From IMG/VR virus record IMGVR_UViG_3300013232_000195: DNA of 20,000 nucleotides; one strand, given 5' to 3'. This document shows, in pieces, positions 5,748 to 20,000 of the stretch. The notes under the pieces were generated by a model that was not told the origin of the DNA, did no database searches, and saw only the letters and a list, made by a program, of their open reading frames with translations. Within the stretch, counting starts at the first letter, position 1. Each line of letters begins with the position of its first letter. The DNA comes from an uncultured virus (IMG/VR IMGVR_UViG_3300013232_000195). Taxonomy: Duplodnaviria > Heunggongvirae > Uroviricota > Caudoviricetes. The position numbers and the translations under genes were made by a program.

Positions 5748-6347
5748 CTAGGCTAGGACTTCGATCTTGGTTGGTTCGCCTGGAGTCTGCGTGACCTTGA
5801 ACCGCAGACATTCCTTTTCGAACTCGGCATTCTGCTCGGCCAGCTTGTCGTGATACGCCCTAACCGCCTCGTTGTACTGGAGCTGCGCGTCTTGTCTGAG
5901 GATCTCGCCCTTGCGCAGCTTCTTGTTGAGACTGGTCTTGAGCGCCACAATCTCGCGGTCCCATCGGCAGCGTTCCCGCCACCGTCGCGCCGACGTATTG
6001 TCGGGGCAAGGCACCATTTCGAAGTAGCTGAGGGGGCATTTCGACTCACATGGCCCCATCGACTCTTCCATGTCCTTGTAACCCCAACCCTCGTCTCGCT
6101 TTGAGTACAGCATCATCGCCACAAAGATCCAACGGTGGGAAGCCAGCAAGTCGGGCGTTCCATCGGGCGCGGTAATGGTGTCTTCGAAGACCGCGTACAG
6201 CGTACCCTTGAAGGAACTGCCCTTGTAACACTTGGTCAGACACTTGCGGCTGACCTTGCTGCCGTCCTCACGTTCCCACTGCTGAGGCTGAACCAACTCC
6301 TCGATGACCGAACCGCGTCTTGAACCTGGAATGAATGTCCAACCCAT
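5748..6347 (-). CDS. DUF6927-like protein, 199 aa
   Basis: MGW start and WGYKDMEESMGP...CPLSY...WRERC motifs; repeat at 6373 and SD. Confidence 0.75.
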   Translation of the reverse strand: MGWTFIPGSRRGSVIEELVQPQQWEREDGSKVSRKCLTKCYKGSSFKGTLYAVFEDTITAPDGTPDLLASHRWIFVAMMLYSKRDEGWGYKDMEESMGPCESKCPLSYFEMVPCPDNTSARRWRERCRWDREIVALKTSLNKKLRKGEILRQDAQLQYNEAVRAYHDKLAEQNAEFEKECLRFKVTQTPGEPTKIEVLA

Positions 6348-6389
6348 TTTCGTATCCTCCCTTTCCCCTAGTCTGGGACCCGAATGGCT

Positions 6390-6758
6390 CTAGTCTTGTC
6401 CGCATGTCCTCAAGACTTCAAGGACGCGGCCCCAGACCAGCATGGTGTCTGGCTTCCAGTTGTACCATTTCTTGTCGTACGTCCACCAGTACCCGCCATG
6501 ATCCAAGTCGGGGTTTTTCGCCTTCTCGTTTCCCTTGAGACTTCTCGCCGTCAAGTCAATGTCGAAGGTCACAGTTGACGTGTTCTTGCGGTTCCACTCC
6601 AGACGCAAGTTGCTGTAACAGCCTTGCGTACCATTCGTGACGAGCGACACCATGACGCAGTTGTCGGGCTTGCCGAAGACGAAGTACTGTCCAGAACGAG
6701 CGCCATGCCCCATCAAAAGAGCGCCCAGTTCCTTTTCAATCATCTCGTTAATGGTCAT
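6390..6758 (-). CDS. Hypothetical protein, about 122 aa
   Basis: Repeat at 6784 and SD; ATG 6758 has better SD spacing than 6764. Confidence 0.8.
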   Translation of the reverse strand: MTINEMIEKELGALLMGHGARSGQYFVFGKPDNCVMVSLVTNGTQGCYSNLRLEWNRKNTSTVTFDIDLTARSLKGNEKAKNPDLDHGGYWWTYDKKWYNWKPDTMLVWGRVLEVLRTCGQD

Positions 6759-6794
6759 CTTCATGTCCTCCCTTTCCAATAGTCTGGGACCCAA

Positions 6795-7037
6795 CTAGGC
6801 GCGGATCATCGCACGGGCTTCCTCGTCCCGCGCTTGCGCCTCAGTGATGTAGTAGAAGTTCACCATCGGATCGGACCATGCGGGAGCGCCCAGGTCTTCC
6901 ACGATCCCCACCGTCCGCTTCTCGTTCAGCGCCTTGTTGCAGGCGAGAACCAAGGCGAAGTCAAGGGACGGGCAATGCCGTCCTTCCACCGAGTACTTGA
7001 CGCCTTCTCCCTTGTTCATCCGCAGGAACAATGACAT
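6795..7037 (-). CDS. Hypothetical protein, 80 aa
   Basis: SD GGGAGG overlaps the upstream TAG; stop 2 nt from repeat 6784. Confidence 0.8.
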   Translation of the reverse strand: MSLFLRMNKGEGVKYSVEGRHCPSLDFALVLACNKALNEKRTVGIVEDLGAPAWSDPMVNFYYITEAQARDEEARAMIRA

Positions 7038-7047
7038 GTGATCCTCC

Positions 7048-7347
7048 CTATCCGTAGACCGTTTTTCTGGCGGTCTTCCAAACCAACTTGGCTTTCTCAG
7101 TGTTTAGCCAGTCATTCCTCGCAAAGTAAGGTACCAGTTTGTACCTATGATCCCCAAAAACTAGGCTGGCATGATGTGGCCCGTTTCTGTCTTCAAACAT
7201 CATGACTATTAGGTCTGAAACTCCCTTAAGACGATAATGCCATTCTTTCCACTTCTCCATTGGCGGGAACTCGGAGAACTCAGCGATCTCCCGCATGATG
7301 CAACCAAGCAGCTTTACAAGCGCTGGCTCAAGTAATTCAGAGTCCAT
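7048..7347 (-). CDS. Hypothetical protein, 99 aa
   Basis: Repeat at 7367, SD, ATG 7347. Confidence 0.75.
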   Translation of the reverse strand: MDSELLEPALVKLLGCIMREIAEFSEFPPMEKWKEWHYRLKGVSDLIVMMFEDRNGPHHASLVFGDHRYKLVPYFARNDWLNTEKAKLVWKTARKTVYG

Positions 7348-7366
7348 TGATTCCTCCCACCATAAC

Positions 7367-7594
7367 CTAGGACCCGATCGACCTACGCTTCTGGTCCGCA
7401 ATCATGGCGTCCATCAAAAGGCGGAACTTGTGGATCATCTCACATATCGTTATTGCGCCAGCGTCCAGACCACTGTTGGCTTGCTTCTCAGCCGCCTTGA
7501 CAGCCGTCTGGAACATGACGAAATCCCCACCTCCGTCCTCGCCAGTGAACACATCGACAATGCGGTCAACGTCTGGTTTCAGTTTGATCTTCAT
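7367..7594 (-). CDS. Hypothetical protein, 75 aa
   Basis: ATGA overlap with upstream gene; ends IGS* inside the repeat. Confidence 0.75.
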   Translation of the reverse strand: MKIKLKPDVDRIVDVFTGEDGGGDFVMFQTAVKAAEKQANSGLDAGAITICEMIHKFRLLMDAMIADQKRRSIGS

Positions 7595-8001
7595 GCGGCC
7601 ACCTTCATTCGCCTAGACGATGCCTTCGCCTCTGTCTTCTTGGCAACGTCCCGCCGCGCCAGACTAGCGGCAGCGCCCACCGCGTTAATGACCACCAGTA
7701 GCCCCAGACACCCTATGGCTATCGCTTGAATGCCGCTGAGGATCATCGTCCCCTCCAGCAGCATGACGAACCCCAGCGACTTGGGTTTGTTCTGGAAGGC
7801 GGCTTGCGCCCACTCGTACACGGTCGGCGCGGAAACCAGCAACCCGCCAAGGACAATCGTCCAGAGCCAAGGCTGGCCCTTGCTCGCCTCATAGTGGGAA
7901 ACGAGGTACGTCGCCACGGGGACGGTAGCCCCGAAAAGGCAACCAACCCATGCCGCCAACGGATTCTTCCAAGCCTCACGAATCTGCCGAAGAACTGTCA
8001 T
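7591..8001 (-). CDS. Multi-pass membrane protein, 136 aa
   Basis: 3-4 hydrophobic segments; repeat at 8034, SD, ATG 8001. Confidence 0.8.
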   Translation of the reverse strand: MTVLRQIREAWKNPLAAWVGCLFGATVPVATYLVSHYEASKGQPWLWTIVLGGLLVSAPTVYEWAQAAFQNKPKSLGFVMLLEGTMILSGIQAIAIGCLGLLVVINAVGAAASLARRDVAKKTEAKASSRRMKVAA

Positions 8002-8050
8002 CTCCCTATCCTCCCTTTTGGCCCAGTCATAGCCTGGGACCCGATCGATG

Positions 8051-8308
8051 CTATTTCGGGACGGGAATGCACGGACCAAACAAGAGAACCCCTTGCCGTC
8101 GTTCCTCTTCCTTGGAACGACCAAAGACGTACATCCCGCCTCTTGCGACCTCAACCATGGTAATGTGTTTGCCACGCAAGGGCATGGAGAACCCTATCGA
8201 CTTGGCATTGAGGACAAGGGCGGGGCTTCTGGTAAGTCCATGCTTGCCATGGTACTTGACCCAATACCATCCCTCGTCCTTCGGCGGTGTCTTCGTCCAG
8301 GTTTTCAT
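8051..8308 (-). CDS. Hypothetical protein, 85 aa
   Basis: MKTWTKTPPKDEGWYWV; GAGG SD immediately after the tRNA CCA. Confidence 0.75.
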   Translation of the reverse strand: MKTWTKTPPKDEGWYWVKYHGKHGLTRSPALVLNAKSIGFSMPLRGKHITMVEVARGGMYVFGRSKEEERRQGVLLFGPCIPVPK

Positions 8309-8321
8309 GGCATCCTCAAAT

Positions 8322-8396
8322 TGGAAGCATCGGTGGGAGTCGAACCCACTTAAACCCGCTTTGCAGGCGGGTACCTGGCCGTCCAGTCCCAATGCT
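8322..8396 (-). tRNA. tRNA-Cys (GCA)
   Basis: Acceptor AGCATTG/CGATGCT, discriminator U and encoded CCA; anticodon arm CCCGC-CTGCAAA-GCGGG; T arm GTGGG-TTCGACT-CCCAC; 75 nt; D region atypical (G at position 8). Confidence 0.85.
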
Positions 8397-8421
8397 TCAA
8401 CATCCAACGTCTAGGACCCAA

Positions 8422-8607
8422 TCAGCCCTTGATCTCCTCGGTCTTCCAGTGGGTACGCTCCTCCGTACTCTCAAACTCGTCGTCGATCTCCTCGCCCATG
8501 CCGTCCGTCTGGATCGCCTCAATGGCGAGTTCCTCGTTCTTCGCCTCCACCTCGTAGGTGGTGAAGTAAATGCGCTTCTCTTGGAACTTCACTCTGAACT
8601 TGGGCAT
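8422..8607 (-). CDS. Small acidic DpnD/PcfM-like protein, 61 aa
   Basis: MPKFRVKFQEKRIYFTTYEVEAKNEELAIEAI; AAGGAG SD. Confidence 0.75.
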   Translation of the reverse strand: MPKFRVKFQEKRIYFTTYEVEAKNEELAIEAIQTDGMGEEIDDEFESTEERTHWKTEEIKG

Positions 8608-8609
8608 GG

Positions 8610-8885
8610 TCACTCCTTCTCGTTGTAGAAGTTCATCAGCCACTCGGAATACGGCTCAATGAAAACGCCCTTCACTGGCTGCATCCCGTCCTTGAACCAC
8701 CCACGTTCCCATATCTGCATCACGGCCAGTCCAGACGTCCCCTCAAGGCAAACCGCCGCGTCTGCCGTGGCAGATCCCCAGCCCATCTCCTTCACCTTGT
8801 CCTTGCCCCAGACGGACGCCTCGCCGTAGCCATTGTCCTTCAGCCACTTGGCAAAGTCATGGGCAGCCTTCAGAGCTTTGGTCAT
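8610..8885 (-). CDS. Hypothetical protein, 91 aa
   Basis: Tightly packed between neighbours, GGAG SD. Confidence 0.8.
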   Translation of the reverse strand: MTKALKAAHDFAKWLKDNGYGEASVWGKDKVKEMGWGSATADAAVCLEGTSGLAVMQIWERGWFKDGMQPVKGVFIEPYSEWLMNFYNEKE

Positions 8886-8888
8886 GGG

Positions 8889-9104
8889 TCACTCCATCGC
8901 ATTCATGGCTTCGGTAAGCTCGGTCAACGGAACAACACGACAAAAATCATCGCCTTTGTTATGCTCAATGACGTGTTTTGACCCGATTGGATGACGGGCG
9001 ACTTCCTTCAGGTTAGACACTAGGGGCTTGTCCCCAGTGGCGTCAATGACCATGATTACTCGACAACGCAGCCCTTGTAGCTCAAGTCTTCCAATCGCAT
9101 ACAT
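8889..9104 (-). CDS. Hypothetical protein, 71 aa
   Basis: Repeat at 9128, SD, ATG 9104. Confidence 0.8.
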   Translation of the reverse strand: MYAIGRLELQGLRCRVIMVIDATGDKPLVSNLKEVARHPIGSKHVIEHNKGDDFCRVVPLTELTEAMNAME

Positions 9105-9153
9105 TCGTTATTTCCTCCCCTTAAAGTCTAGGACCCGATCGTTCTGGCACGAA

Positions 9154-9198
9154 GGGAGGCCCTGGCGCGGAGGGAGAGCCGCGCCAGGGCAGGGAGAA
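9154..9198. repeat. 45-bp GC-rich hairpin element, copy 2
   Basis: Near-identical to 5703-5747; also lies just upstream (gene sense) of a GGGTCC repeat. Confidence 0.9.
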
Positions 9199-9283
9199 AC
9201 TTAGTCGGGGAATCCGCCAGCTTGGGCTTCGTCGCAATTGCCTTCGCAATTCTGGCCGCAGTACTCGCATTCAAAGCCGTTTG

Positions 9284-9571
9284 CTAGCCATTCTTCTCTT
9301 TCTCCTTGCGCTGTGCAAGCCGCTCCTCCATGGCCTTCTTGGCGGCGTCCCGTTCGACCTTGCGCATCGCGCAAGTCTTCATCAGAATCAACTCGGAGAT
9401 GGAGATGGAGATGCCGCATTCAACCTCTTGGGCGAGAAGCCGAAGCTCGACTTGGGTCGCGTTGTCGGTGATGACCTTGAGCCGAGCCATGAATTCCTGT
9501 TCGGCGGCGTGGATGTACTCCTGCGCCTCTAGGTTCAGGACACCGTATTCGTTGTAGGTCATCTTCAGCAT
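9284..9571 (-). CDS. Hypothetical helical protein, 95 aa
   Basis: Repeat at 9595, SD, ATG 9571. Confidence 0.8.
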   Translation of the reverse strand: MLKMTYNEYGVLNLEAQEYIHAAEQEFMARLKVITDNATQVELRLLAQEVECGISISISELILMKTCAMRKVERDAAKKAMEERLAQRKEKEKNG

Positions 9572-9605
9572 CGGCGCTTTCCTCCCCTCACCGTCTGGGA
9601 CCCAA

Positions 9606-9740
9606 CTAGCCCTTGCGCTTCGGCGGCGGCAACTTGCCGTCTTCAATCAGTTTGTTCCAGGCAACCCGTTCCAGCATTTTGCCAATGTAGAAGCCAACGA
9701 AGAAATGCAGCGGACACGCGAGGATAAGTATTGTGAACAT
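9606..9740 (-). CDS. 44-aa peptide with hydrophobic N-terminus
   Basis: MFTILILACPLHFFVGFYIGKMLERVAWNKLIEDGKLPPPKRKG*; GGAGG SD; stop 2 nt from repeat 9595. Confidence 0.65.
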   Translation of the reverse strand: MFTILILACPLHFFVGFYIGKMLERVAWNKLIEDGKLPPPKRKG

Positions 9741-9745
9741 CGGCG

Positions 9746-9949
9746 TTAGTATCCTCCCGTTAACTCGACCATGTAGACCGAGTCATTGTTGTCGCGTTGC
9801 GTCTTGAACGTCACGCCTTCCCGAACGAGCTGCGAGATGAACACAGCCATCAGCTTCACGCCTTCTTCTGTCATGCTGAACAACACTTCCTTTTCCTTCA
9901 CGGGGCACCGCGCCGGATAACTCAGGTTCTCTCCAAGCTTCGTATTCAT
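9746..9949 (-). CDS. Hypothetical protein, 67 aa
   Basis: Repeat at 9975, SD, ATG 9949. Confidence 0.8.
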   Translation of the reverse strand: MNTKLGENLSYPARCPVKEKEVLFSMTEEGVKLMAVFISQLVREGVTFKTQRDNNDSVYMVELTGGY

Positions 9950-9985
9950 TCTCTTGTCCTCCCTTTCCAACAGTCTGGGACCCAA

Positions 9986-10249
9986 TCAGCCTTCCTCGCG
10001 GCATTCCTCGGACGCCCGCGCAAGGTCCAGCCGCTTCCCGTTCTCGGTCGCGATGTCGTCGAAAACCGTGAGGATCGGCGTTCCGTACTCGACCTCTAGC
10101 ACGATCGGCGTCCCGAAACCGTTCACCGAGTTGGCGTCCCCGAACCCCTTCGGGCGAATCAAGAGGGCGCCAGTCGATGCCATCTCGACCGTCACTTCCA
10201 GGTCGGGGCCACCCTTGTTGTCCTTCACCTTGAATGTCGCTGATTCCAT
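9986..10249 (-). CDS. Hypothetical protein, 87 aa
   Basis: Repeat at 10276, SD, ATG 10249. Confidence 0.8.
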   Translation of the reverse strand: MESATFKVKDNKGGPDLEVTVEMASTGALLIRPKGFGDANSVNGFGTPIVLEVEYGTPILTVFDDIATENGKRLDLARASEECREEG

Positions 10250-10296
10250 TGGCGTTTTCCTCCCTTTCCCATTGACTAGGACCCGATCGGTCGGCG

Positions 10297-10641
10297 TTAG
10301 GCCTTGCGCTCGCAAAAGAAGTCCAGCTTCTTCATGATCAAGGAAGCGACTTCGGGATAGAAGTCGGGATGAGCGGCGTTTGTGGACAAGAAGTCCAAGA
10401 CCGTCCCCGCGCTCATATACTCCGAACCATGCGCCCCGAAACGGACGCAAACATGCGCCTGGTTGACGCCGATGTCCCCCTCGTGGATATACACGTCCAC
10501 GGGATCAAACTCCAGCTTGTTCCGAACGAGGACCGATCCGATGTACTCGCTTTCCTTATGCCCACAACCGTCAGGCCAAGCCCGCTTGGGCAACTCCTCG
10601 ATATACGCATCGAACCTGGCATGGGTCATTCGCATTCGCAT
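10297..10641 (-). CDS. Hypothetical protein, 114 aa
   Basis: Repeat at 10664, SD, ATG 10641. Confidence 0.8.
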   Translation of the reverse strand: MRMRMTHARFDAYIEELPKRAWPDGCGHKESEYIGSVLVRNKLEFDPVDVYIHEGDIGVNQAHVCVRFGAHGSEYMSAGTVLDFLSTNAAHPDFYPEVASLIMKKLDFFCERKA

Positions 10642-10670
10642 CGTCTGTCCTCCCCTTACCAGTCTGGGAC

Positions 10671-10703
10671 CCGAACGGGGCGGGAATGACCCGCCCCGTT
10701 CGG
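10671..10703. other. Perfect 14-bp hairpin overlapping a repeat core
   Basis: CCGAACGGGGCGGG-AATGA-CCCGCCCCGTTCGG. Confidence 0.75.
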
Positions 10704-10711
10704 AACTCCCC

Positions 10712-11248
10712 TTAGTCCATCCGAGAACCCATGTAGGCCTTGATGCCAGCCTCTGCACAAACCTTGGCGAAGGCGCTGGCATACGCCTCTTTCCTCTGCA
10801 TGCTCTGTCCGCCCTCGTGAACCCACAACTGCATTCCGCCGTAGTAGCCCCGCGATGCCTGCGTGTTCTTCCGAAGCCAGATCGCGAACGAGCAGTTCGC
10901 TGGCTGAATCGTGACCCACGCGAACCCGCAAACCCCGCCCTCGACAAACCATTCCTTCTTGACGGGCGATGCATCGTCCAGAGGGCTTTGCCGCTCTTGG
11001 ACAACCATGGGCATCGGGCGGGCCGCTTCCAGCGCGGCCATTCCCGCCGCGTGAGCCTTGTCGTACAGCGCCTTCCACGTCGCTTCCCGATTCTCGCGCT
11101 CTTCGGCGCTCTTGGCGAAAATGGCCTTCATCTTTTCACGCGCAACCTTGGCGCAAGACGGGCAATACTTGCCCTTTCCCGCCCCATTCTGACAGCCTTC
11201 CCATGCACACTTCTTGGTGATCGTAGAACTGTAGTATTCAAGGCTCAT
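10712..11248 (-). CDS. Phage-type hypothetical protein with N-terminal Cys motif, 178 aa
   Basis: CAWEGC...CPSC; GVCGFAWV...QSMQRKEAYASAFA...SRMD pattern I recall from phage proteins; repeat at 11298. Confidence 0.85.
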   Translation of the reverse strand: MSLEYYSSTITKKCAWEGCQNGAGKGKYCPSCAKVAREKMKAIFAKSAEERENREATWKALYDKAHAAGMAALEAARPMPMVVQERQSPLDDASPVKKEWFVEGGVCGFAWVTIQPANCSFAIWLRKNTQASRGYYGGMQLWVHEGGQSMQRKEAYASAFAKVCAEAGIKAYMGSRMD

Positions 11249-11340
11249 GGTCGTTTTCTCCCTTTGGGTTTCCCTTGCTCCCCTTCACACTCATAGACTG
11301 GGACCCGAATGCCCCCATCATCGCACGACCATTTGCCTGG

Positions 11341-11383
11341 AAAAGGCAAGGGGGAGGACCGTGGCCACGGCCTCCCCGCTTGC
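11341..11383 (-). terminator. Probable intrinsic terminator
   Basis: Long GC-rich stem GCAAG.GGGGAGG.CCGTG/CACGG.CCTCCCC.CTTGC followed by CTTTT on the - strand. Confidence 0.55.
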
Positions 11384-11467
11384 GAATCAAAGGTGTCTAC
11401 TCGGCTCAAAATTTATCTAAATGACTCGGCAGCTCTCCGAGTCGCGGGCGCAACCCGCCCGCGTCCC

Positions 11468-11614
11468 TCAACCCCATTCGTGGGTTTGCGCCCTCTTCGG
11501 GCAGGCGAAGGACTTGGCCGCTTCGGGCCGTTCATTCAGTGGGGTAGCTGTCCCCACCGTTTCACTCTTTTCCATAAGGAAGAGCAAAGATCGTATGACA
11601 CTGGCGAAGATCAT
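11468..11614 (-). CDS. Possible 48-aa peptide (or leader of a structured RNA)
   Basis: Repeat at 11650, AAAGGAGG SD, ATG 11614; the region is hairpin-rich, so coding is uncertain. Confidence 0.4.
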   Translation of the reverse strand: MIFASVIRSLLFLMEKSETVGTATPLNERPEAAKSFACPKRAQTHEWG

Positions 11615-11665
11615 CCACTCCTCCTTTCTTCGTATCCTCTTCCTTCTGGCTAGGACCCGAACGCC

Positions 11666-11938
11666 CTAGCCGATCTGAGTCACCTTACCACACTTCTGGC
11701 ACGTCCAGTGATGCTTGCTGCCAGGTTCGTCTGGGTGGTAGTTGCTTCCAGGCGATTCCTTGCAACGACACCACATGTTCTGGAAGGCGTGGTATTCCTT
11801 GAACTTCTGGATTGTAACGAGCTTCTCGCCGTTACACGTCACGCAAGTCAACTCGCCTTGCATGACCTTTCCGAACTCGTGTGAGGTGTAAGCAATCTTT
11901 CCCGTTCCCTTGCAATGAGGACAAGCGCGAGCTAGCAT
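11666..11938 (-). CDS. Cys-rich zinc-finger protein (CxxCxGxG-type repeats), 90 aa
   Basis: CPHCKGTG, CVTCNG, CRC, CQKCG; repeat at 11965 and SD. Confidence 0.85.
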   Translation of the reverse strand: MLARACPHCKGTGKIAYTSHEFGKVMQGELTCVTCNGEKLVTIQKFKEYHAFQNMWCRCKESPGSNYHPDEPGSKHHWTCQKCGKVTQIG

Positions 11939-11981
11939 TGTTTCGTTCCTCCCTTTACCTTGGACTGGGACCCGATCGCGC

Positions 11982-12227
11982 TTACCAATACTTGTGGCGT
12001 ATGCTCCAACCTTTCGCGTCAAGCCACGCCTTGAGGTTCTCCCACGTCCCCGCCTTGTCGGCGTTGTGGGTGTCGGCCCAAAACAACTTGTGGTAAAGAT
12101 CGTCAAACGTCAAGCCTTGAATCGTCCAGGTCGGCGGTTGTTCGCCCTTAAGATCAAGCGTCCCGTCTGGAAACCGACGCTCGATGACCAGCTTTTGGTT
12201 CGAAGTGTATGGCTGTCCCATGCCCAT
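11982..12227 (-). CDS. Hypothetical protein, 81 aa
   Basis: Repeat at 12254 and SD. Confidence 0.8.
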   Translation of the reverse strand: MGMGQPYTSNQKLVIERRFPDGTLDLKGEQPPTWTIQGLTFDDLYHKLFWADTHNADKAGTWENLKAWLDAKGWSIRHKYW

Positions 12228-12268
12228 TGAAATGTCCTCCCTTTTCCCATAGACTGGGACCCAATCGG

Positions 12269-12400
12269 TCAGCGGTTATCGCACTCCTTCTCCTGCTTCC
12301 TGCGTCGGCGGGCCTTGCGGTTCATGAAGGTCCGTTCATACTTTTTCAATCCAGTATGCGCGGGAGAAGGATTTTTTCGGTAAGGCTTTGTCTTAGCCAT
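12269..12400 (-). CDS. 43-aa basic peptide
   Basis: MAKTKPYRKNPSPAHTGLKKYERTFMNRKARRRRKQEKECDNR*; GAGG SD; overlaps the upstream stop. Confidence 0.6.
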   Translation of the reverse strand: MAKTKPYRKNPSPAHTGLKKYERTFMNRKARRRRKQEKECDNR

Positions 12401-12566
12401 TGCGTACCTCTGTCACGTGTTCAAGGTGAACCAATTCCTGAGGGACTATCGGCCACTCCCACTCAACGGGAGAAACAAAACCACGATCCTCGTTCCACTC
12501 GACAACGACGTACAACTCATCGCTTCCAACCAACTTAACTTTGTCACCTGCCACTATGGGTTTCAT
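12393..12566 (-). CDS. Small beta-rich (SH3/KOW-like) protein, 57 aa
   Basis: MKPIVAGDKVKLVGSDELYVVVEW; repeat at 12589 and SD. Confidence 0.75.
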   Translation of the reverse strand: MKPIVAGDKVKLVGSDELYVVVEWNEDRGFVSPVEWEWPIVPQELVHLEHVTEVRNG

Positions 12567-12605
12567 CGCTATTTCCTCCCACAATGGTCTGGGACCCGAA
12601 CGGGC

Positions 12606-12752
12606 CTACCGTTCGGGTCGTTGTTTCTTCTTTGCTCCCCGCGAGAACTGCCCGCCACACTGGCGGCATGTGTAATGTTTCAGGTTCCCCAACTGCCCGA
12701 GCGGGTGAAGGTCGCCGCCACACATCGGACACGCGCCGAACCTAATCCTCAT
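12606..12752 (-). CDS. 48-aa zinc-ribbon peptide
   Basis: MRIRFGACPMCGGDLHPLGQLGNLKHYTCRQCGGQFSRGAKKKQRPER*; absent from the ORF track because it is under 60 aa. Confidence 0.7.
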   Translation of the reverse strand: MRIRFGACPMCGGDLHPLGQLGNLKHYTCRQCGGQFSRGAKKKQRPER

Positions 12753-12951
12753 CGCTCACCCCTCGCATGATGCATTCCACCACCACACCCGCCCGCTGAA
12801 TCGTTCGCGGTGTCCGAGTGACGCCCAACTCCCGCGCAATCCCGTCCGCCTGCTTCTTGGCGTGGTAGTCACTCACCGCGTCAAAGCTAACGTTGGCGGT
12901 TGACGGATGCCCCACTTGCGCCCACTTGGCCACGTAATGGTTCTTTTTCAT
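12742..12951 (-). CDS. Hypothetical protein, 69 aa
   Basis: Repeat at 12978, SD, ATG 12951. Confidence 0.8.
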   Translation of the reverse strand: MKKNHYVAKWAQVGHPSTANVSFDAVSDYHAKKQADGIARELGVTRTPRTIQRAGVVVECIMRGVSDED

Positions 12952-13000
12952 TCGTTGGTTCCTCCCTTTCCTATAGTCTGGGACCCAATCGGTCAGGCCA

Positions 13001-13270
13001 CTACGGGCGCACAATCTGCCTTGCCGCTTCTTTGGCCAGACATACCGACGCGCAAAGAGAATTGTCTGGCGCGAACCGTACCAAGTCCGAATGCATTCTG
13101 TCCCACAAAATCAGCGGTATGTCATTGAAATTCTCATCGGTGGAACTGCGCAACGTCTTTTCCCCTATCGTATTGAGTACAAAACCGCGAACAGCAGTAT
13201 TCACGTATTGCCCGTAGTACTCGGAGTGAGTACATTTTCCGTTCAGGTAGTCGTCCCTTGTGTATCTCAT
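13001..13270 (-). CDS. Hypothetical phage-type protein, 89 aa
   Basis: MRYTRDDYLNGKCTHSEYYGQYV; repeat at 13297 and SD. Confidence 0.85.
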   Translation of the reverse strand: MRYTRDDYLNGKCTHSEYYGQYVNTAVRGFVLNTIGEKTLRSSTDENFNDIPLILWDRMHSDLVRFAPDNSLCASVCLAKEAARQIVRP

Positions 13271-13314
13271 TGTCGTGTTCCTCCCTTTCACATGGACAGG
13301 GACCCAATCGGCCC

Positions 13315-13605
13315 TTAACTGGCACCTATTTTACGAATTCGCCAGCCCCAAGTAGGTACAACAACAATCTCGTACCCTTCGGCAAGAATGGGTAATGGCC
13401 TGATTTCTCCATCGTACCACTTCCCATCATGTACGCATCCGCCGTTATATCGAATTTTGCCAAACGCGGGCGGGACACTGGCAGAACTTCCAAGGTAGCC
13501 CTTGAAGTGGAGCTTGCTCCCGAACGCATCCTTATGGACATGCTTCGCTTTTTTCTCGCAAGTTGCGACACCCCAGGTTTCTTGCGGAAACGTAAAAAAT
13601 GGCAT
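13315..13605 (-). CDS. Hypothetical protein, 96 aa
   Basis: Repeat at 13628, SD, ATG 13605. Confidence 0.8.
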   Translation of the reverse strand: MPFFTFPQETWGVATCEKKAKHVHKDAFGSKLHFKGYLGSSASVPPAFGKIRYNGGCVHDGKWYDGEIRPLPILAEGYEIVVVPTWGWRIRKIGAS

Positions 13606-13657
13606 CTCTGGTTCCTCCCTCAATAGACAAGGACCCAATCGGCCAGGTTCAATGGCA

Positions 13658-13897
13658 CTAAACTGGCGCGTTAGGATTGTCGGCGTATCGCTTGGCCAGC
13701 TTCTCCGCCTCAGACACGCAACGGCAATGCGGGTTGCCATAGCCATACTTGGCCATGAAGTCAGCGCCGCGCCGCGTCCTGAATGGCCCAATGACAGCCC
13801 CGTACAAATGACCATGACTGTCAAAGGTCGGCGTATCCGCGTTCCTGAACACTTCTCGCGTAAGCCCCGTCTTGAGCCCAACCCAAAGCTTAGTCAT
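13658..13897 (-). CDS. Hypothetical protein, 79 aa
   Basis: Repeat at 13923, SD, ATG 13897. Confidence 0.8.
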   Translation of the reverse strand: MTKLWVGLKTGLTREVFRNADTPTFDSHGHLYGAVIGPFRTRRGADFMAKYGYGNPHCRCVSEAEKLAKRYADNPNAPV

Positions 13898-13939
13898 CGG
13901 CGTATTTCCTCCCACCTCTGGACTGGGACCCGCTTGGCC

Positions 13940-14158
13940 CTACAACTCCTCACAGTATAGCACATCGCGAGCGGCGTTTGCAATCCGCTCGCAATCCTCC
14001 ATCGGAAGGCCAGTACGGTAACGAATCGTTTCGGCGTCGTTGCCGTCGTTCCCGTCCCTGAACGCCCGCAAAACGTCCCGCAACGTCGGCTTGTCCTGGC
14101 CCTCGAACATATGCTGATCGAGGACGGCCTGGATACGCGGCTGAATCTTGTTAGGCAT
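13940..14158 (-). CDS. Hypothetical protein, 72 aa
   Basis: Repeat at 14180, SD, ATG 14158. Confidence 0.8.
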   Translation of the reverse strand: MPNKIQPRIQAVLDQHMFEGQDKPTLRDVLRAFRDGNDGNDAETIRYRTGLPMEDCERIANAARDVLYCEEL

Positions 14159-14179
14159 CGCTGTTCCTCCCTCAATGGT

Positions 14180-14827
14180 CTAGGACCCAACTAGCTCCGC
14201 CTTTTCCATTTCCTCCCAGCATTCCCCGTTGTAGTCGCTGGGAATCTCTGGCTTGTCCACCGTCCCAAACTGCTTTGTCTTGCAACCGCAAGCCCATATC
14301 CGCCCTTCGGGGTCAACCACCATATCGGGACAAACGCAGCCCTTGTCCTCCGTCGCGCAATCCACGCCCCGCCCCACGGGATAAACCACCCGATCCGCCC
14401 CGTCCCGTATCCCTCGCATGTCGTTATTGTCCCGATCATAGCTGGGCTTGCGCTTGAACGCTTCCACGACCTTGCTATCAATCGGCTCATGGTATGAATC
14501 GGTGGACAAGTCCACCGACAACACGCCCCGCCGCGCCAATTCAGCCAGCGCTAGCGCGTCTTTCGTCCGCTTGCCGTTCGTGATGATTCCAGGCTGTCCC
14601 TCGCCGATGCTGGCAGAGGCGGACAAGGCCAGCCCCAGGAACTCCCAGAACTTGGGATGGACCGTCGGTTCGCCACCACCAAGGAAGGGCGCGGAGCCGT
14701 AGTTCTCACACAACGCCAGCGCCTTCTTGTAGGTTGACATGCCCATGTGATTCCCAGTCGTGGGGCCACACGAGTAACAGCAATGAGCGCATTCCATGTT
14801 ACAGCGTTCGGTGATCTGGATGTACAT
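14180..14827 (-). CDS. Radical SAM protein, 215 aa
   Basis: ITERCNMECAHCCYSC (CxxxCxxC), GGGEPTVHP, ITNG, and a C-terminal C..VDPEGRIWAC resembling a SPASM/Twitch remnant; stop supplied by the repeat (VGS*). Confidence 0.92.
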   Translation of the reverse strand: MYIQITERCNMECAHCCYSCGPTTGNHMGMSTYKKALALCENYGSAPFLGGGEPTVHPKFWEFLGLALSASASIGEGQPGIITNGKRTKDALALAELARRGVLSVDLSTDSYHEPIDSKVVEAFKRKPSYDRDNNDMRGIRDGADRVVYPVGRGVDCATEDKGCVCPDMVVDPEGRIWACGCKTKQFGTVDKPEIPSDYNGECWEEMEKAELVGS

Positions 14828-14891
14828 TGGCCGTCCTCCCTTTGTTCTCCCAAGGATAGCCTAGGACCCAATCGTCGTCAATACATCGCAC

Positions 14892-15374
14892 CTATAGAAT
14901 CGGTTCCTTGAGGGTGAACGCATACGGTCCCCTCGCAATGTCCATGCTGTCAAGCGCGGCAATCGCCTTGCGCAAGGCTGCCAATTCAACCTCAAGCGCC
15001 TCCGCTGCCTTGCGGGCTTCAAGCTGCTTCTCGGCAACACGGTGGCAATCGTCCTCAAGCCGAACCCGTTGGGCTTGCCGTAACACGTCGGGATTCTTCT
15101 TCGCGGCTTCCTTCCATGCCGCCATGAAGGCTTCCACAACCTTATCCTTGGCCGAACGGCTAACATCGTGTCCGCCAGAACGGCTGATATACGCCCCCGC
15201 GCCGTTGGCATTCTCCAAGCCCCATCCACCATGAGGTTGCTTGTAGATGTGTACGTTCGCGTTGTACTGAATCCCCCGAACCGTAACCAAACCCTCAAGG
15301 TACGCGTGGTTGTCACCCGTGATCGTCGCCCGTACCTCACCAACCGCCGTGGGAATCTTCATCGTAGGCCACAT
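14892..15374 (-). CDS. Hypothetical protein with C-terminal coiled coil, 160 aa
   Basis: Repeat at 15399, SD, ATG 15374. Confidence 0.8.
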   Translation of the reverse strand: MWPTMKIPTAVGEVRATITGDNHAYLEGLVTVRGIQYNANVHIYKQPHGGWGLENANGAGAYISRSGGHDVSRSAKDKVVEAFMAAWKEAAKKNPDVLRQAQRVRLEDDCHRVAEKQLEARKAAEALEVELAALRKAIAALDSMDIARGPYAFTLKEPIL

Positions 15375-15389
15375 GGTATGTCCTCCCTT

Positions 15390-15644
15390 TCACATGGTCT
15401 GGGACCCGATCGGCTCATACGCCACCGCCACGATGTCCTCAGCCAGAAGCGCAGCGTCCTCATCCTCGCTGTCCGCTAACCGACGAATGAGAACTTGCAA
15501 CTCATCGGGGTGAACCTCGGATGTAAGCCGATGCCCATTGTCGGAGAACGTGGACCGCGTGAACCCCTCAAGACGGGAATCGATGCCTTGGTTAACGGCC
15601 TCGATGACATTCTTGCGATCTTTCCCGACAAAACTCATCTTCAT
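15390..15644 (-). CDS. Hypothetical protein, 84 aa
   Basis: Repeat at 15667 and SD; reads through the next repeat and ends IGSQTM*. Confidence 0.75.
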   Translation of the reverse strand: MKMSFVGKDRKNVIEAVNQGIDSRLEGFTRSTFSDNGHRLTSEVHPDELQVLIRRLADSEDEDAALLAEDIVAVAYEPIGSQTM

Positions 15645-15657
15645 GCTTATCTCCCTT

Positions 15658-15843
15658 TCACATAGTCTGGGACCCAATCTTCCGCATCAGCTCCAGGGTT
15701 TCTTTTTTGCTCTTGGCCAAGGCACACTCACTATGAGTTGTGAATAGCTTGGTGTAGTCGCTGGCCTTCCCGCCATACTTTTTTGCCCGTTCAGAGGCAG
15801 ACGGCACAAGCGTTATGGGCTTCCCACAAATGGTGCATTTCAT
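15658..15843 (-). CDS. Small Cys/His protein, 61 aa
   Basis: MKCTICGKP...HSEC; repeat at 15870 and SD; ends IGSQTM*. Confidence 0.75.
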   Translation of the reverse strand: MKCTICGKPITLVPSASERAKKYGGKASDYTKLFTTHSECALAKSKKETLELMRKIGSQTM

Positions 15844-16035
15844 CGGCGACATCCTCCCTTTCCCATAGACAGGGACCCAATCCCGCCAAACATTGCACCA
15901 GGCGGAGGTTTTACCCTCCGCCTGGGAGCGATTGGAAAGGAGCCAGACGGCGGTAGATACGGGGCTGAAACGAAAAACCAAGGGAAGCCCTCACGACGCC
16001 TCATCCGCTAGGCCGTTTCTTTTCCCTCGGACACT

Positions 16036-16079
16036 GGGAGAGCAAGGCGCGGGACACCTCACCGCGCCTTGCTAGGGAG
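16036..16079. repeat. GC-rich hairpin element, diverged copy 3
   Basis: GGGAG-AGCAAGGCGCGG-N9-CCGCGCCTTGCT-AGGGAG; same flanks as 5703/9154 with compensatory stem changes. Confidence 0.8.
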
Positions 16080-16082
16080 TTC

Positions 16083-16472
16083 TTACCGCTCGTTGGGGAG
16101 CATGGCGACATAGGCGGGATTGATCCCGTCAACGCTGCCCAACTCAACCCAAACCCTCACTTCATCCATCGGAAAGTCCGTGAACTCCACCTCTTGCTTG
16201 ATCTTGATGTTCCCGTTCCCGTCGTCACACGTCACGACAGCCCCGCCCTTCGCGTTCCGCTTCAACTTCCAGAACTGCATGTCCCGCAAGTCCTTGTCCT
16301 TCTTGCACTTGGGCTGGTAGCTGGCGATGATGTCCAGAAACCAGAAACACTCCGCATTCTCCGCAAGGAACCGAACCCCGTCCGTCAACAGTAGCCCCGC
16401 GAGATAGCGGGTGTAGCCTTCCGTCCCGCTGAACCCCTCAAGCGCGGCATTCAAGCAATTCGCTGGCATCAT
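16083..16472 (-). CDS. DUF6876-like protein, 129 aa
   Basis: FSGTE...LLTDGVRFLAENAECFWFLDIIAS...QFWKL...CDDGNGN...FTDFP...MLPNE pattern; repeat at 16499 and SD. Confidence 0.8.
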   Translation of the reverse strand: MMPANCLNAALEGFSGTEGYTRYLAGLLLTDGVRFLAENAECFWFLDIIASYQPKCKKDKDLRDMQFWKLKRNAKGGAVVTCDDGNGNIKIKQEVEFTDFPMDEVRVWVELGSVDGINPAYVAMLPNER

Positions 16473-16526
16473 GTTCGTCGTCCTCCCTTTCACCTAGTCT
16501 GGGACCCAATCGGCCAGGCGCTCGCA

Positions 16527-16778
16527 CTAGCTCAGTATCTTCTTGATCTCTTCGGCGTGTTCCGTGATGAAGTCCGCCACGTCGTCCTTAGACATGCCGT
16601 TATAGCCGTCGGCGTCAACCAGCGCCCGCATGGCAATCTGCCGCTGATGCGCTTCGGCGTCTTCCTTGGTGTAGAACCGCCTACCGTCCGTCGTCGTCCA
16701 ACACGGAGCGACGTCTTCCACGATCCCACTGGTATACAAATGACTCGGAATCTTCCTGGTCGTCGGTCGCTCCCTCAT
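16527..16778 (-). CDS. Hypothetical protein, 83 aa
   Basis: Repeat at 16804, SD, ATG 16778. Confidence 0.8.
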   Translation of the reverse strand: MRERPTTRKIPSHLYTSGIVEDVAPCWTTTDGRRFYTKEDAEAHQRQIAMRALVDADGYNGMSKDDVADFITEHAEEIKKILS

Positions 16779-16858
16779 CGGCGTTTCCTCCCTTTCCCTT
16801 GGGCTGGGACCCAAACGCTTCGGCGGGGGTTCAATCCTCCCGCCGTCGGCGTTTGTCT

Positions 16859-17059
16859 CTAGCTCAACGCGGCCTCCAACAGCCGCCCCAGCTTGATGCC
16901 CTTCGACGCGGCCAGCGCGTTCTTGCGAGCGGCGTTTGCTGCCGCCTTCGCTGCCGCCATTGCCTGCGCCTTGCGCTCCGCCCGACGCCTCGCGGCCAAG
17001 GCGGACGCCTTGGCCTTCTCGGTCGCGGACACGGGAACGACGACTCCGAATCTCGGCAT
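16859..17059 (-). CDS. Ala/Lys/Arg-rich basic helical protein, 66 aa
   Basis: Repeat variant at 17084, SD, ATG 17059. Confidence 0.75.
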   Translation of the reverse strand: MPRFGVVVPVSATEKAKASALAARRRAERKAQAMAAAKAAANAARKNALAASKGIKLGRLLEAALS

Positions 17060-17148
17060 GGTTGTTCCTCCCTTTCACATCGGCTCGGACCCGATCGAGG
17101 CCAGGTAGTCCGCCAGGCGACACGACGGTGCGATAATCCCATGAAGTG

Positions 17149-17182
17149 AAAAAGCAAGGCGCGGCCACACGCCGCGCCTTGC
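17149..17182 (-). terminator. Intrinsic terminator
   Basis: GCAAGGCGCGGC-N5-GCCGCGCCTTGC followed by TTTTT on the - strand, 15 nt after the stop of 17198..17716; stem related to the hairpin family. Confidence 0.75.
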
Positions 17183-17197
17183 CGCTACCCTTGCCGC

Positions 17198-17716
17198 CTA
17201 GAGGCGGTGGGTTTCGCTATCCACCCGCAGTTCCTTAATGCTTTCCAGTTTGTAGGTGAGGAAGCGGATCGGCTCATCCGTCCCTTGGTTTTTGTACTCG
17301 CTGGGCTTTTCCAGCCACGGTTCCAGCGTTTCCTTCGCCACTTCCTCGCCGTTGTCCATCACGTACCGAACCTCGGACACGTTCAGCGAGCGGAAGCGGA
17401 GGTACATCTGGCCGTTCTGCTTGTGACGGCAGAAGGGCGTCAGCGTCCCGTCAGCGCGGATGACTGGCTCATGCCAACTTTCCCCCGCGAAGAAACAACT
17501 GGCGTCCTTGCCTTCCTTCGCCAACTGGCGGAGAACCGCCCCGTCATAGTGAAAGTTGATCTGTCCGCTGATCTTGGCGATCTTGCGGACGCGGCCAGCG
17601 TAGGGATTGCCGCGCTTGCGCATCTTCGGTTCCGTTTCGGCAGTGAAACCGATGAAGGTCGCGCCCCTCTGCCCTTCCAGCAACTCGACCACTCCCGCTT
17701 CAGCCACGTTAGCCAT
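17198..17716 (-). CDS. Phage-type hypothetical protein, about 172 aa
   Basis: Repeat at 17766; AAGGGAG SD; ATG 17716 (or 17722). Confidence 0.85.
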   Translation of the reverse strand: MANVAEAGVVELLEGQRGATFIGFTAETEPKMRKRGNPYAGRVRKIAKISGQINFHYDGAVLRQLAKEGKDASCFFAGESWHEPVIRADGTLTPFCRHKQNGQMYLRFRSLNVSEVRYVMDNGEEVAKETLEPWLEKPSEYKNQGTDEPIRFLTYKLESIKELRVDSETHRL

Positions 17717-17765
17717 TGTCATTCTCCCTTTTCCGTTTCCCTTGTCTCCCCTTCACATCAACAGC

Positions 17766-18071
17766 CTAGGACCCGACTGGCCGCATGACCTCACGGATGA
17801 ATCGCACGTTGTACTTCACGCTGCCGCAAGACTGGCAAGTGTACGTCTGTCCTTTGCCAACGCCTTCCACCGTATGCCTTGTGGACATGCGGCGACAATT
17901 GCAGTAACGGTTCTCGGCAGACTCACGAGCCTCCGTTATCGCCTCCTCGGCAATTTCTTCCTCGTACTCGGCGCGGATTTCGCGGATGTCCTTAAACCGC
18001 GTGTTGCGCCCTCGCGTGGCATGAGCCATTCCCGCAGCGCGTGTTTTCGCGTTCTCTGCATGTCTGTTCAT
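17766..18071 (-). CDS. Hypothetical protein with C-terminal zinc ribbon, 101 aa
   Basis: CNC...CQSCG; repeat at 18095 and SD; ends VGS* inside the repeat. Confidence 0.8.
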   Translation of the reverse strand: MNRHAENAKTRAAGMAHATRGRNTRFKDIREIRAEYEEEIAEEAITEARESAENRYCNCRRMSTRHTVEGVGKGQTYTCQSCGSVKYNVRFIREVMRPVGS

Positions 18072-18189
18072 TTGCCATTCCTCCCACGGTCTGCCAGGGA
18101 CCCAAACGACCCCACCATCGCACCATCCAGGCTCCCGCCTGGCCCTGGCCCATTCGGGTCCGAGACTGAGAACGGGAGGAAACAAAAAC

Positions 18190-18501
18190 ATGGCAATCCT
18201 GGACGCGAATGGCAAGCCCGCCAAACTGAGGATCTATGACAACGGTGGCCAGTCGGCTGACCGATACACCGTTGTCTTCACGGGCAACTACAAGGGACGG
18301 GGAGGACGTTGTTCCTACCTCGCGATGGGTGGCTCACCGTTCCACCCGCAAGGCTTCTGCCAGCATGGGGAGCATCACACGGTCATCGACCGTCCCCAGT
18401 ACAGCCACCTTGGCAAGCCGATCAGCTTTGACGATCTGCCCGAAGACTGCAAAAGGGCCGTCTGGCAAGACTACCGCGCAATCTGGAACCTCAAGGGCTA
18501 G
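18190..18501 (+). CDS. Phage-type hypothetical protein, 103 aa
   Basis: LRIYDNGGQSADRYTVVF...HLGKPISFDDLPEDC; repeat at 18156 and SD. Confidence 0.85.
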   Translation: MAILDANGKPAKLRIYDNGGQSADRYTVVFTGNYKGRGGRCSYLAMGGSPFHPQGFCQHGEHHTVIDRPQYSHLGKPISFDDLPEDCKRAVWQDYRAIWNLKG

Positions 18502-18534
18502 TTGGGTCCCAGACCATTGGAAAGGGAGAAAACA

Positions 18535-18795
18535 ATGGCAAACGCTAAGGAAGTCGAAGCCCTCAAGGCCTTGTGGATCGCTGCCCGCGACAAAGAAGAG
18601 GAGTTGTTGGAGAAGTGGAAGGCGGCTGCGGACGATTCTGAGGAGTTCGCCAAACTCGGCGTGGCTCTCAGCAAGGCCACCGAGGACGTAGAAGAGACAC
18701 GGCGCGACTGGCTAGAGGCCAAGGCCGAAGCCAGAGCCCAGCCGACGCCAGAAGAAGAGATGGACTCCGAACCGTACGCGGATTGGGACTTCTAA
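18535..18795 (+). CDS. Acidic coiled-coil protein, 86 aa
   Basis: Repeat at 18504, SD, ATG 18535. Confidence 0.8.
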   Translation: MANAKEVEALKALWIAARDKEEELLEKWKAAADDSEEFAKLGVALSKATEDVEETRRDWLEAKAEARAQPTPEEEMDSEPYADWDF

Positions 18796-18834
18796 GACCG
18801 ATTGGGTCCCAGTCCAGAGGTGGGAGGAACGACA

Positions 18835-19041
18835 ATGGCAAGAAACGTATTCGTTCGGGACGATGCGCGAAGGACGCTGGAGTACAAGGCTCGCTGCCTC
18901 CACGGCGAGCTGCTGGACTCGGGCTGGCCCGCCAATCTCGCACCGTACGCGGCCCTCTACTACGTCGGGGCCAAGAGCATCGACTGGCTGAAGGAACACT
19001 TCAAGCCAGACGCCGTGGAATACATCTGCAAGATGCGGTGA
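18835..19041 (+). CDS. Hypothetical protein, 68 aa
   Basis: Repeat at 18804, SD, ATG 18835. Confidence 0.8.
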   Translation: MARNVFVRDDARRTLEYKARCLHGELLDSGWPANLAPYAALYYVGAKSIDWLKEHFKPDAVEYICKMR

Positions 19042-19045
19042 ATCG

Positions 19046-19167
19046 GGGCAGTAATTACCGCAAGGCGTCCCTCCGCCCCATACGGTAGGACGTGAGCGGT
19101 GGCGGTACTGATGGGGTATCGCCCACGTAATAACGCATCGACAGCGTTAGGCGTGGCAAAACTGCCC
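19046..19167 (+). ncRNA. Candidate structured RNA (multi-stem junction with kissing loops)
   Basis: Nested helices found by eye (see findings); family unknown; strand inferred from flanking genes. Confidence 0.5.
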
Positions 19168-19209
19168 AACCATTTGGGTCCCAGTCAATGTCAAAGGGAG
19201 GAACGAAAC

Positions 19210-19542
19210 ATGGCGAAGTACAAAGATAAGCTATACCGCTTGGCCGATCAGCCCACGTCTAAGGAAAGCAAGGCTCTTGGCGTACTTGACAAGCCTTGTA
19301 CGGACGACCCCTCAGTATCGCTGCCCGCTGGAATGCTTGGCAAAATCCAGCTTCGCGGGGTTCGCACTGGCGAGTACCGCGCCCCGAAGGCTGGAGAATG
19401 GTACTTGAGCGGAGCAGAGCCAGAGGCTTGGAAGGCCAGGAACGACTTGACTTCGCCCTACTACATCCTCCGCCTTGTCCGCGTCAAGACCGAGAAGGTG
19501 ACCATTACGACAATCGTGCAAGAGGTGCCAAGCAGGGACTAA
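19210..19542 (+). CDS. Hypothetical protein, 110 aa
   Basis: Repeat at 19176, SD, ATG 19210. Confidence 0.8.
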   Translation: MAKYKDKLYRLADQPTSKESKALGVLDKPCTDDPSVSLPAGMLGKIQLRGVRTGEYRAPKAGEWYLSGAEPEAWKARNDLTSPYYILRLVRVKTEKVTITTIVQEVPSRD

Positions 19543-19580
19543 GGCCAATCGGGTCCCAGTCCTAGGTAAAGGGAGGACAC

Positions 19581-19754
19581 ATGGCCAATCACATGAAACG
19601 CTGCTCGTGTCGCCATTGCGAGCGTGGGTTGCGTACCAAAGCTGGCGGAGAGGTAGCCCGTCAGGCCGTACGCAAGGCCCGCCGCATGGCCAAGGTCGCG
19701 CTCAAGAACGGTGCTGAGCCGTCCCCCGTCTTCTCCATGCACTACACGGACTGA
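19581..19754 (+). CDS. 57-aa basic Cys-containing peptide
   Basis: MANHMKRCSCRHCERGLRTK...HYTD*; repeat at 19551 and AAAGGGAGG; stop 7 nt before the last repeat. Confidence 0.75.
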   Translation: MANHMKRCSCRHCERGLRTKAGGEVARQAVRKARRMAKVALKNGAEPSPVFSMHYTD

Positions 19755-20000
19755 AGCGATTGGGTCCCAGACATAAGACGTGAGAGGTTTAGCCAGAGGA
19801 AGGGTAGGCGCGGTGGCCATTGTGGTCCCCCTACCCTTCCTCCTCCCAATACCTATAACCACTCGGACGATCTAGCACCCAGCCCCAGCCAGGTAGGACG
19901 CCAGGCAGTACCCAGGAGAGGGTATATGCCATAGAGGCGTTGCTATAACCTATAAGTACTAATAACATTTAGAATAAAAATAAAACATCATGCACAAAAC

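Follow-up and report, generated by a model that had tools for sequence, protein, structure and literature searches.

Towards the end of the 20,000 nt stretch of DNA analysed here (hereafter the window), two small genes on the + strand are separated by a 122 nt element (19046–19167, +) that is predicted to fold into a four-way junction, and the question raised by this locus is whether the element acts as an RNA in its own right, serves one of the neighbouring genes or has no function. The window contains a block of ∼50 small genes, almost all of them without known function; exceptions with an assigned family are limited to a radical SAM domain protein, DUF6876 and DUF5983, at 14180–14827 (−), 16083–16472 (−) and 2512–2865 (−). 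The host element is ∼197 kb in size (the record for the 110 aa protein of the window places it on a contig of 196,989 nt) and may be either a jumbo phage or a megaplasmid. Two of the proteins encoded in the window have plasmid relatives, many of them predicted to be conjugative, and none in cultured phages; for DUF6876, tblastn relatives were found on cyanobacterial and Acetobacter plasmids. A protein atlas provided only leads for the two proteins flanking the element (68 and 110 aa), amongst them feature-based look-alikes of the 110 aa protein that are viral.

The genes of this block are organized in units led by a short repeated motif. Its core, YGGGTCCYAG, is present in 43 copies (546–19770); the word TGGGTCCCAG, allowing one mismatch at most, occurs 35 times compared with 1.95 expected, and the extended consensus, ggccgaT-tGGGTCC-cAG-aC.at, covers ∼20 nt. 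All copies run in the same direction as the genes around them, with 38 copies on the − strand (546–18104) and five on the + strand (18503, 18803, 19175, 19550 and 19761). In 41 of the 43 copies a strong Shine–Dalgarno sequence and an ATG follow 16–49 nt after the motif, and stop codons are mostly located within ∼10 nt of the next motif. The two exceptions are a copy that precedes a tRNA gene and the last copy, at 19761, which is not followed by an ORF. As a unit containing a tRNA and one with a non-coding hairpin carry the motif too, it marks units and not just protein starts, and we infer that it is a transcription (promoter) or processing signal rather than a translation signal. In the titles and abstracts of the literature consulted, nothing relevant to the motif word or to similar phage RNAs was found.

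The tRNA in question, a tRNA-Cys (GCA) with an encoded CCA, was identified by ARAGORN at 8322–8396 (−), 14 nt after the motif at 8411–8420. It ends 13 nt before the ATG (8308) of an 85 aa ORF (8308–8051) and 4 nt before the GAGGA of the same ORF; thus, it lies inside a motif-led unit, within what would be the leader of an mRNA, and transcripts of this kind must be processed in order to release their RNAs. At the other exception, the motif at 19761, a 13 bp perfect hairpin (GAGGAAGGGTAGG...CCTACCCTTCCTC) follows and no ORF is present (19761–19860). This region, of which 19685–19837 or more is covered by three metagenome runs with few differences, may represent a further non-coding unit or mark the boundary of the gene block; the sequence becomes AT-rich at the end of the window (19940–20000).

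Two IMG/VR contigs that also encode the 103 aa protein of the window, one of 98 kb and one of 200 kb, carry repeated words of other kinds. On the 98 kb contig (L037), a distant relative on which this protein has 60 % identity, a palindrome, TTACTAGCTAGTAA, is repeated (e.g. 4869–12096), its 10-mer core being present in ∼53 copies on 98 kb; it is often followed by TGGCAC-N5-TTGCA, which resembles the sigma-54 promoter consensus. The 200 kb contig (G002; L045–L054) carries another repeated word, AGTAACCCTGGCTCCG, in ∼26 copies. Genome-wide signals for gene units may therefore be a habit shared by these large elements.

The element itself is the second item of the unit that opens with TGGGTCCCAG at 18803–18812 (+). 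The first item is an ORF of 68 aa (18835–19041, +; no Pfam or PHROGs family), whose stop codon (19039–19041) ends 4 nt before the first helix of the element. Directly behind the element lies the motif of the next unit, again TGGGTCCCAG (19175–19184, +), with an extended consensus that begins at ∼19168–19174 (..CCATT), and the ORF of that unit, encoding 110 aa (19210–19542, +), starts 43 nt after the element. Just as the earlier note on this DNA had it, the element takes up almost the entire gap, i.e. 122 nt out of the 133 that separate the stop codon from the motif core. The corresponding position, immediately before the next motif, is occupied in other units by plain GC-rich hairpins (e.g. 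at motifs 10673, 9137 and 15879). Such hairpins, of 9–13 bp and without a U-tract, are seen in the − strand gaps 10642–10672, 9138–9200, 15880–15930, 16040–16082 and 11330–11400; the gap at 15880–16082 has a z-score of −3.5 to −3.9.

Unconstrained minimum free energy (MFE) folding of 19046–19167 recovered the architecture that had been proposed from reading the letters, save for the register at the junction. A terminal helix, P1, is formed over 7 bp by GGGCAGT (19046–19052) and ACTGCCC (19161–19167) and encloses three hairpins, with junction linkers of 3, 0, 0 and 4 nt. P2 (19056–19101) is a long hairpin of 6+6+3 bp, interrupted by 3×2 and 2×2 internal loops, and all of its proposed parts (19057–19061 with 19096–19100, 19065–19070 with 19088–19093, and CCG/CGG closing the apical loop CCCCATA at 19076–19082) are present. 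P4 (19123–19156) consists of 6+6 bp around an AA/G internal loop, has the apical loop ATCGACA (19137–19143) and likewise contains the predicted pairings, CACG with CGTG and 19131–19136 with 19144–19149. For P3 (19102–19122), an 8 bp hairpin, the helix was correctly recognized, but its register, given as 19101–19108 with 19116–19123, differs in the MFE fold: here G19101 pairs into P2 and C19123 into P4, which leaves P3 as 19102–19109 with 19115–19122 and a 5 nt loop, GATGG (19110–19114), in place of the TGATGGG (19109–19115) of the earlier register.

This fold is exceptionally stable for its composition. The MFE of the element is −62.2 kcal/mol, compared with a mean of −42.3 (sd 3.9) for 200 dinucleotide shuffles (z = −5.08), and none of these shuffled controls reached it. 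It is also very well defined: the MFE structure has a frequency of 0.44 in the ensemble (shuffle median 0.025, maximum 0.32) and the ensemble diversity is 2.25 (shuffle median 27, minimum 4.3), values attained by none of 300 shuffles. When folded inside a context of 301 nt, the four-way junction was unchanged in both the MFE and the centroid structure. Amongst 3976 windows (122 nt each, moved in steps of 10 along both strands), the element has the fifth lowest MFE and ranks third to fourth (tied) by GC-corrected residual. The other places with top MFE values (10666–10787 −, 15806–15937 −, 17106–17227 − and 5696–5817 +) hold or overlap long single GC hairpins; therefore, strong structures of another kind exist elsewhere in the window. 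On the gene-sense strand, the gap containing the element nevertheless has the lowest z-score of the 12 non-coding gaps (−5.10; the next is −3.53). A second copy of the element was found in the window neither with a single-sequence covariance model nor by blastn-short.

The fold also favours one strand. The antisense sequence folds at −53.1 kcal/mol (z = −2.77), i.e. the + strand is better by 9.1 kcal/mol, and the 42 pairs of the + strand include five G·U pairs, which turn into C·A mismatches when the other strand is folded. Both flanking genes have the better-folding strand as their sense strand. With DNA parameters the junction of the + strand is still formed (−31.6 kcal/mol, z = −4.16, reached by none of 200 shuffles), so that a signal in single-stranded DNA has to be considered as well. 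In the thermodynamic sense, then, the fold is real; it favours one strand, forms a module and matches its gap exactly. Of the claim that this is a structured RNA, a discrete, very stable and well-defined four-way-junction fold on the gene-sense strand has held up, whilst RNA identity stays at the level of a candidate; as the following searches gave it no family, we describe the element as an orphan candidate structured RNA, with thermodynamics as its support.

The earlier note could assign the element to no known family, and comparison with Rfam 15 agrees with this. At the gathering threshold, a search of the whole window returned a single match, a tRNA at 8325–8396, and none at 19046–19167; at E ≤ 10, a 311 nt segment gave three weak matches, none of them overlapping the element, and a 136 nt segment gave one match on the − strand, at 11.5 bits compared with a threshold of 44. 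The phi29-type pRNA model produced no match at E ≤ 10, and the junction of the element is four-way. A tRNA was considered and rejected. ARAGORN reported no gene at the element with default settings, with or without introns; calls there arose only with ps70, ps60 or the mitochondrial mode, with low scores and ends that do not match P1. In addition, P1 is followed by A-A-C-C-A, so that the CCA is offset by one base from where a tRNA would have it. The bases after P1 are AACCATTTGGG, and the CCATT amongst them forms part of the extended sequence that leads into the next motif, many copies being preceded by ..ccgaT or ..ccatT.

Signals of other kinds were equally absent from the regions scanned. 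In 18000–20000 we found no terminator-like sites and, on the + strand, no sigma-70-like promoter; no U-tract follows P1, and in the 301 nt context neither the MFE nor the centroid fold contains a helix that sequesters a Shine–Dalgarno sequence. With regard to coding potential, the gap contains no ORF with a ribosome-binding site, and a protein search with the antisense ORF that runs across the element yielded no match.

We looked for relatives of the locus in several collections. Distant-mode blastn of the region gave no match in 50,697 phage and 72,556 plasmid records. The motif 15-mer occurs at nine loci in IMG/VR, with one chance copy each, and the pattern of motif plus ribosome-binding site at two chance loci in IMG/VR, at six loci in GTDB genomes, all single copies, and at 21 loci in JGI metagenomes, where the only true relative (L022; 1183 nt, three motifs) corresponds to 16000–17700 of the window and does not cover the element. 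In IMG/VR, the 18-mer from the 3′ end of the element was found at three loci and a three-loop pattern with free stems at 10, the best model score being 11.2 bits in both cases, which is at chance level. Searches of IMG/VR with the flanking proteins gave no relative for the 68 aa protein and one match of 14 residues for the 110 aa protein; the 147 aa read-through ORF gave 17 matches, none of which reaches over the element; amongst them are proteins of 88 and 79 % identity, encoded on contigs of 5193 and 1896 nt, respectively. The 98 and 200 kb contigs share one to two genes with the window and contain no match to the element model. These searches thus revealed no full-length homologue in cultured phages, plasmids, IMG/VR, GTDB genomes or JGI metagenomes.

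Sequencing runs provided one partial relative. Small parts of 18500–19800, at most 0.14 of its words, are shared by 17 DNA runs from 14 studies, with labels, where given, of freshwater, lake, pond or sediment (which we treat as leads only); no RNA runs are amongst those sharing words with this region. Contigs from four runs were aligned to the stretch, and none covers 18906–19107. However, a lake-metagenome contig of 197 nt (run X4, record 8) matches 19108–19202 with nine substitutions and one deletion in 95 nt. This contig joins 19202 to 19580 with CGT in between, such that the 3′ part of the element and the motif are kept whilst the gene at 19210–19542 is missing, the difference being exactly one ORF with its following motif/ribosome-binding site cassette, gained or lost. 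Gene cassettes seem to be gained and lost by recombination between the repeated motif–ribosome-binding site stretches, and as the next gene differs in this relative, the element is not tied to the gene at 19210–19542. Three of the differences in this contig can be given by position, with seven more not itemized, and all three fall in P4: 19145 C>T keeps its pair (G–C to G·U), 19147 T>C would break an A–U pair unless accompanied by 19133 A>G, and at 19128 the U of the terminal G·U pair is deleted. Neighbouring coding DNA (18750–18905) shows 11 substitutions and six gaps in 156 nt; the 95 nt matched by the lake contig are about as diverged as this, and so give no sign of special conservation.

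Because the fold is strand-specific, modular and exactly fitted to the gap, we regard a functional sense-strand RNA as the best single explanation for this locus. Specifically, and tentatively, since we rate it at somewhat less than an even chance, the element may be a small stable RNA that is co-transcribed with its neighbour and released, or left over, by processing. A structured module on the sense strand would be transcribed together with the 68 aa ORF in a unit with the order motif (18803), ORF (18835–19041), element, and would then be cut out of the longer transcript, or remain from it, as must happen to the tRNA-Cys. Such a compact RNA would most probably persist, with P1 holding its 5′ and 3′ ends together, and the complementary loops of P2 and P3 could either join copies of the RNA or lock its fold. 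A quality of folding far beyond both chance and the rest of the window argues for this reading, as do the independence of the domain in its 301 nt context, the preference for the + strand (z = −5.08 versus −2.77), a terminal helix that joins the ends and the filling of the gap from stop codon to motif. It is also consistent with a genome that embeds a tRNA-Cys within a motif-led unit, with the retention of the 3′ part of the element before a different gene in the lake contig, and with a gap that offers no ORF bearing a ribosome-binding site and whose antisense ORF has no protein match. In disagreement with it are the failure of the searches above to bring up a full-length homologue, the lack of an upstream motif of its own, which the tRNA-Cys does have, the position at the end of a unit, where others bear plain GC-rich hairpins, and the divergence of the lake contig, including the potentially pair-breaking change at 19147; MFE values similar to that of the element also occur elsewhere in the window, although these belong to single hairpins.

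The position at the end of a unit suggests another explanation, namely that the element is a passive structure at the 3′ end of the upstream message, which would stop transcription or act as a barrier to 3′ exonucleases with no function as a separate RNA and would be a more elaborate form of the GC-rich hairpins at the ends of other units. It stands where the hairpins before motifs 10673, 9137 and 15879 stand, it has no promoter-like motif of its own, and several intergenic hairpins in the window are comparable to it in MFE. Yet no U-tract is present, the scan of 18000–20000 detected no terminator-like site, a junction of three hairpins closed by a terminal helix exceeds what a stop or a barrier needs, and the z-score of −5.10 stands apart from those of the other 11 gaps (best −3.53). 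We therefore consider a merely passive role unlikely, albeit worth keeping in mind.

A similar judgement, of a rather low probability, applies to the notion that the element has no function and represents a fortuitously stable stretch or a decaying relic, e.g. of an old insertion, which is tolerated in the gap. The element is single-copy, the sole relative found is one partial contig, and that contig, with its nine substitutions and one deletion in 95 nt, is about as diverged as neighbouring coding DNA is. Against this, no shuffled sequence matched the element in energy (0 of 200) or in definition (0 of 300), the partial relative has kept part of it, and in a genome with otherwise tiny gaps, 122 useless nucleotides would be unusual.

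The proximity of the downstream gene, whose start codon (19210) lies 43 nt from the element, would also be compatible with a cis-acting leader, i.e. a riboswitch, thermosensor or protein-binding site, all the more as many riboswitches are built around a four-way junction that has a tertiary contact. We deem this improbable to a high degree: the conserved motif that starts the next unit intervenes between the element and the ribosome-binding site, the same layout from motif to ribosome-binding site is used in 41 other units without such an element, the 301 nt fold contains no alternative pairing that hides the Shine–Dalgarno sequence, no terminator-like site was seen in 18000–20000, no riboswitch family in Rfam 15 matches, and in the lake contig the next gene is a different one. 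Least probable of all, and very much so, is a signal in single-stranded DNA for priming, single-strand initiation, replication or transfer, of the type known from single-strand origins and from the leading region of conjugative plasmids. In its favour, the junction persists with DNA parameters, several genes of the window have relatives on plasmids, many of them predicted to be conjugative, and none in cultured phages (DUF6876 in 57 plasmid records, the 103 aa protein in 11), and the Pfam families DUF6876 and DUF5983 are present. Against it, neither a relaxase nor a replication gene was identified in the window, nor was a known nick or ssi sequence; the five G·U pairs behind the preference for the + strand would be weaker as G·T in DNA, and the element is flanked by two ordinary + strand genes.

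Returning to a small stable RNA, a further property of the element concerns the loops of P2 and P3 (L2 and L3), which had been proposed to form a pseudoknot. CCCAT (19077–19081) and ATGGG (19111–19115) can indeed form five Watson–Crick pairs, with a duplex energy of −6.6 kcal/mol, and in a simulation with random 7 nt loops of the same composition, complementarity of this extent arose by chance in 0.9 % of cases for that pair of loops and in 2.8 % for any of the three pairs of loops. We regard this match as suggestive, not decisive. Whilst the 5 bp complementarity stands, its use within one molecule seems doubtful in view of general junction geometry: an antiparallel stacked junction could place P2 and P3 next to each other, but P2, with ∼15 bp plus two internal loops, has about double the length of P3 (8 bp), so that an intramolecular kiss would require P2 to bend sharply, a demand that pairing between molecules does not make.

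This leads to a bolder version, which we consider improbable, in which the element represents a new class of small stable RNA in large freshwater mobile elements or jumbo phages. In one variant, L2 and L3 would, after excision, pair between molecules as in pRNA and build dimers or rings; in the other, the tRNA-sized, four-armed body would serve as a decoy for an RNA-directed defence of the host or for a processing enzyme.

A comparison with known systems helps to delimit what kind of RNA this might be. With 3′ stabilizing hairpins and factor-independent terminators the element has in common its location directly after a stop codon and at the end of a unit, but it is multi-branched, closed by a terminal helix and devoid of a U-tract. 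The SAM-I and cobalamin riboswitches are four-way-junction aptamers with a tertiary or pseudoknot contact, and the element resembles them in size, in its junction and in a possible long-range contact between loops; unlike them, it has no Rfam match and no expression platform, and a unit-start motif stands before the next ribosome-binding site. The likeness to tRNA consists of a four-way junction, a closing helix of 7 bp, three hairpin arms and a ..CCA shortly after, whereas neither the arm lengths nor the linkers of 3, 0, 0 and 4 nt fit a cloverleaf, and the complementary loops are on adjacent arms rather than arranged like D and T loops. By description, the element can also be set beside rnaC and rnaD of phage T4 (species 1 and 2 RNAs), which are phage-encoded RNAs without a known function, tRNA-sized, highly structured and processed from a longer transcript, in that it is a tRNA-sized and highly structured candidate; the T4 RNAs, however, lie inside a tRNA cluster, and the only tRNA here is 10.6 kb away from the element. 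If real, the element would be an uncatalogued structured RNA and would join the very few stable RNAs, other than tRNAs, that are known from phages and plasmids. Furthermore, it belongs to a genome in which one 20 nt signal marks essentially every unit, including those of a tRNA and a non-coding hairpin, and which makes the release of RNAs from such units a testable question.

A further parallel is the pRNA of phi29-like phages (Rfam Phage_pRNA), an RNA of ∼120 nt with paired 5′ and 3′ ends and a multi-helix junction that assembles into a ring on the portal through intermolecular loop pairing. The element is of the same length, ∼120 nt, and likewise has a terminal helix, a junction of several helices and two loops that are Watson–Crick complementary. 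The pRNA, however, has a three-way junction, a bulged left-hand loop, loop pairs of 4 nt and a home in small, protein-primed phages of ∼20 kb, whilst the element has a four-way junction and a host of ∼197 kb, without packaging genes in the window or a match to the Rfam model at E ≤ 10. Should the loops of the element prove to pair with each other between copies, it would be the second case from nature of an RNA assembling in the manner of pRNA, and one that lies beyond the phi29 group.
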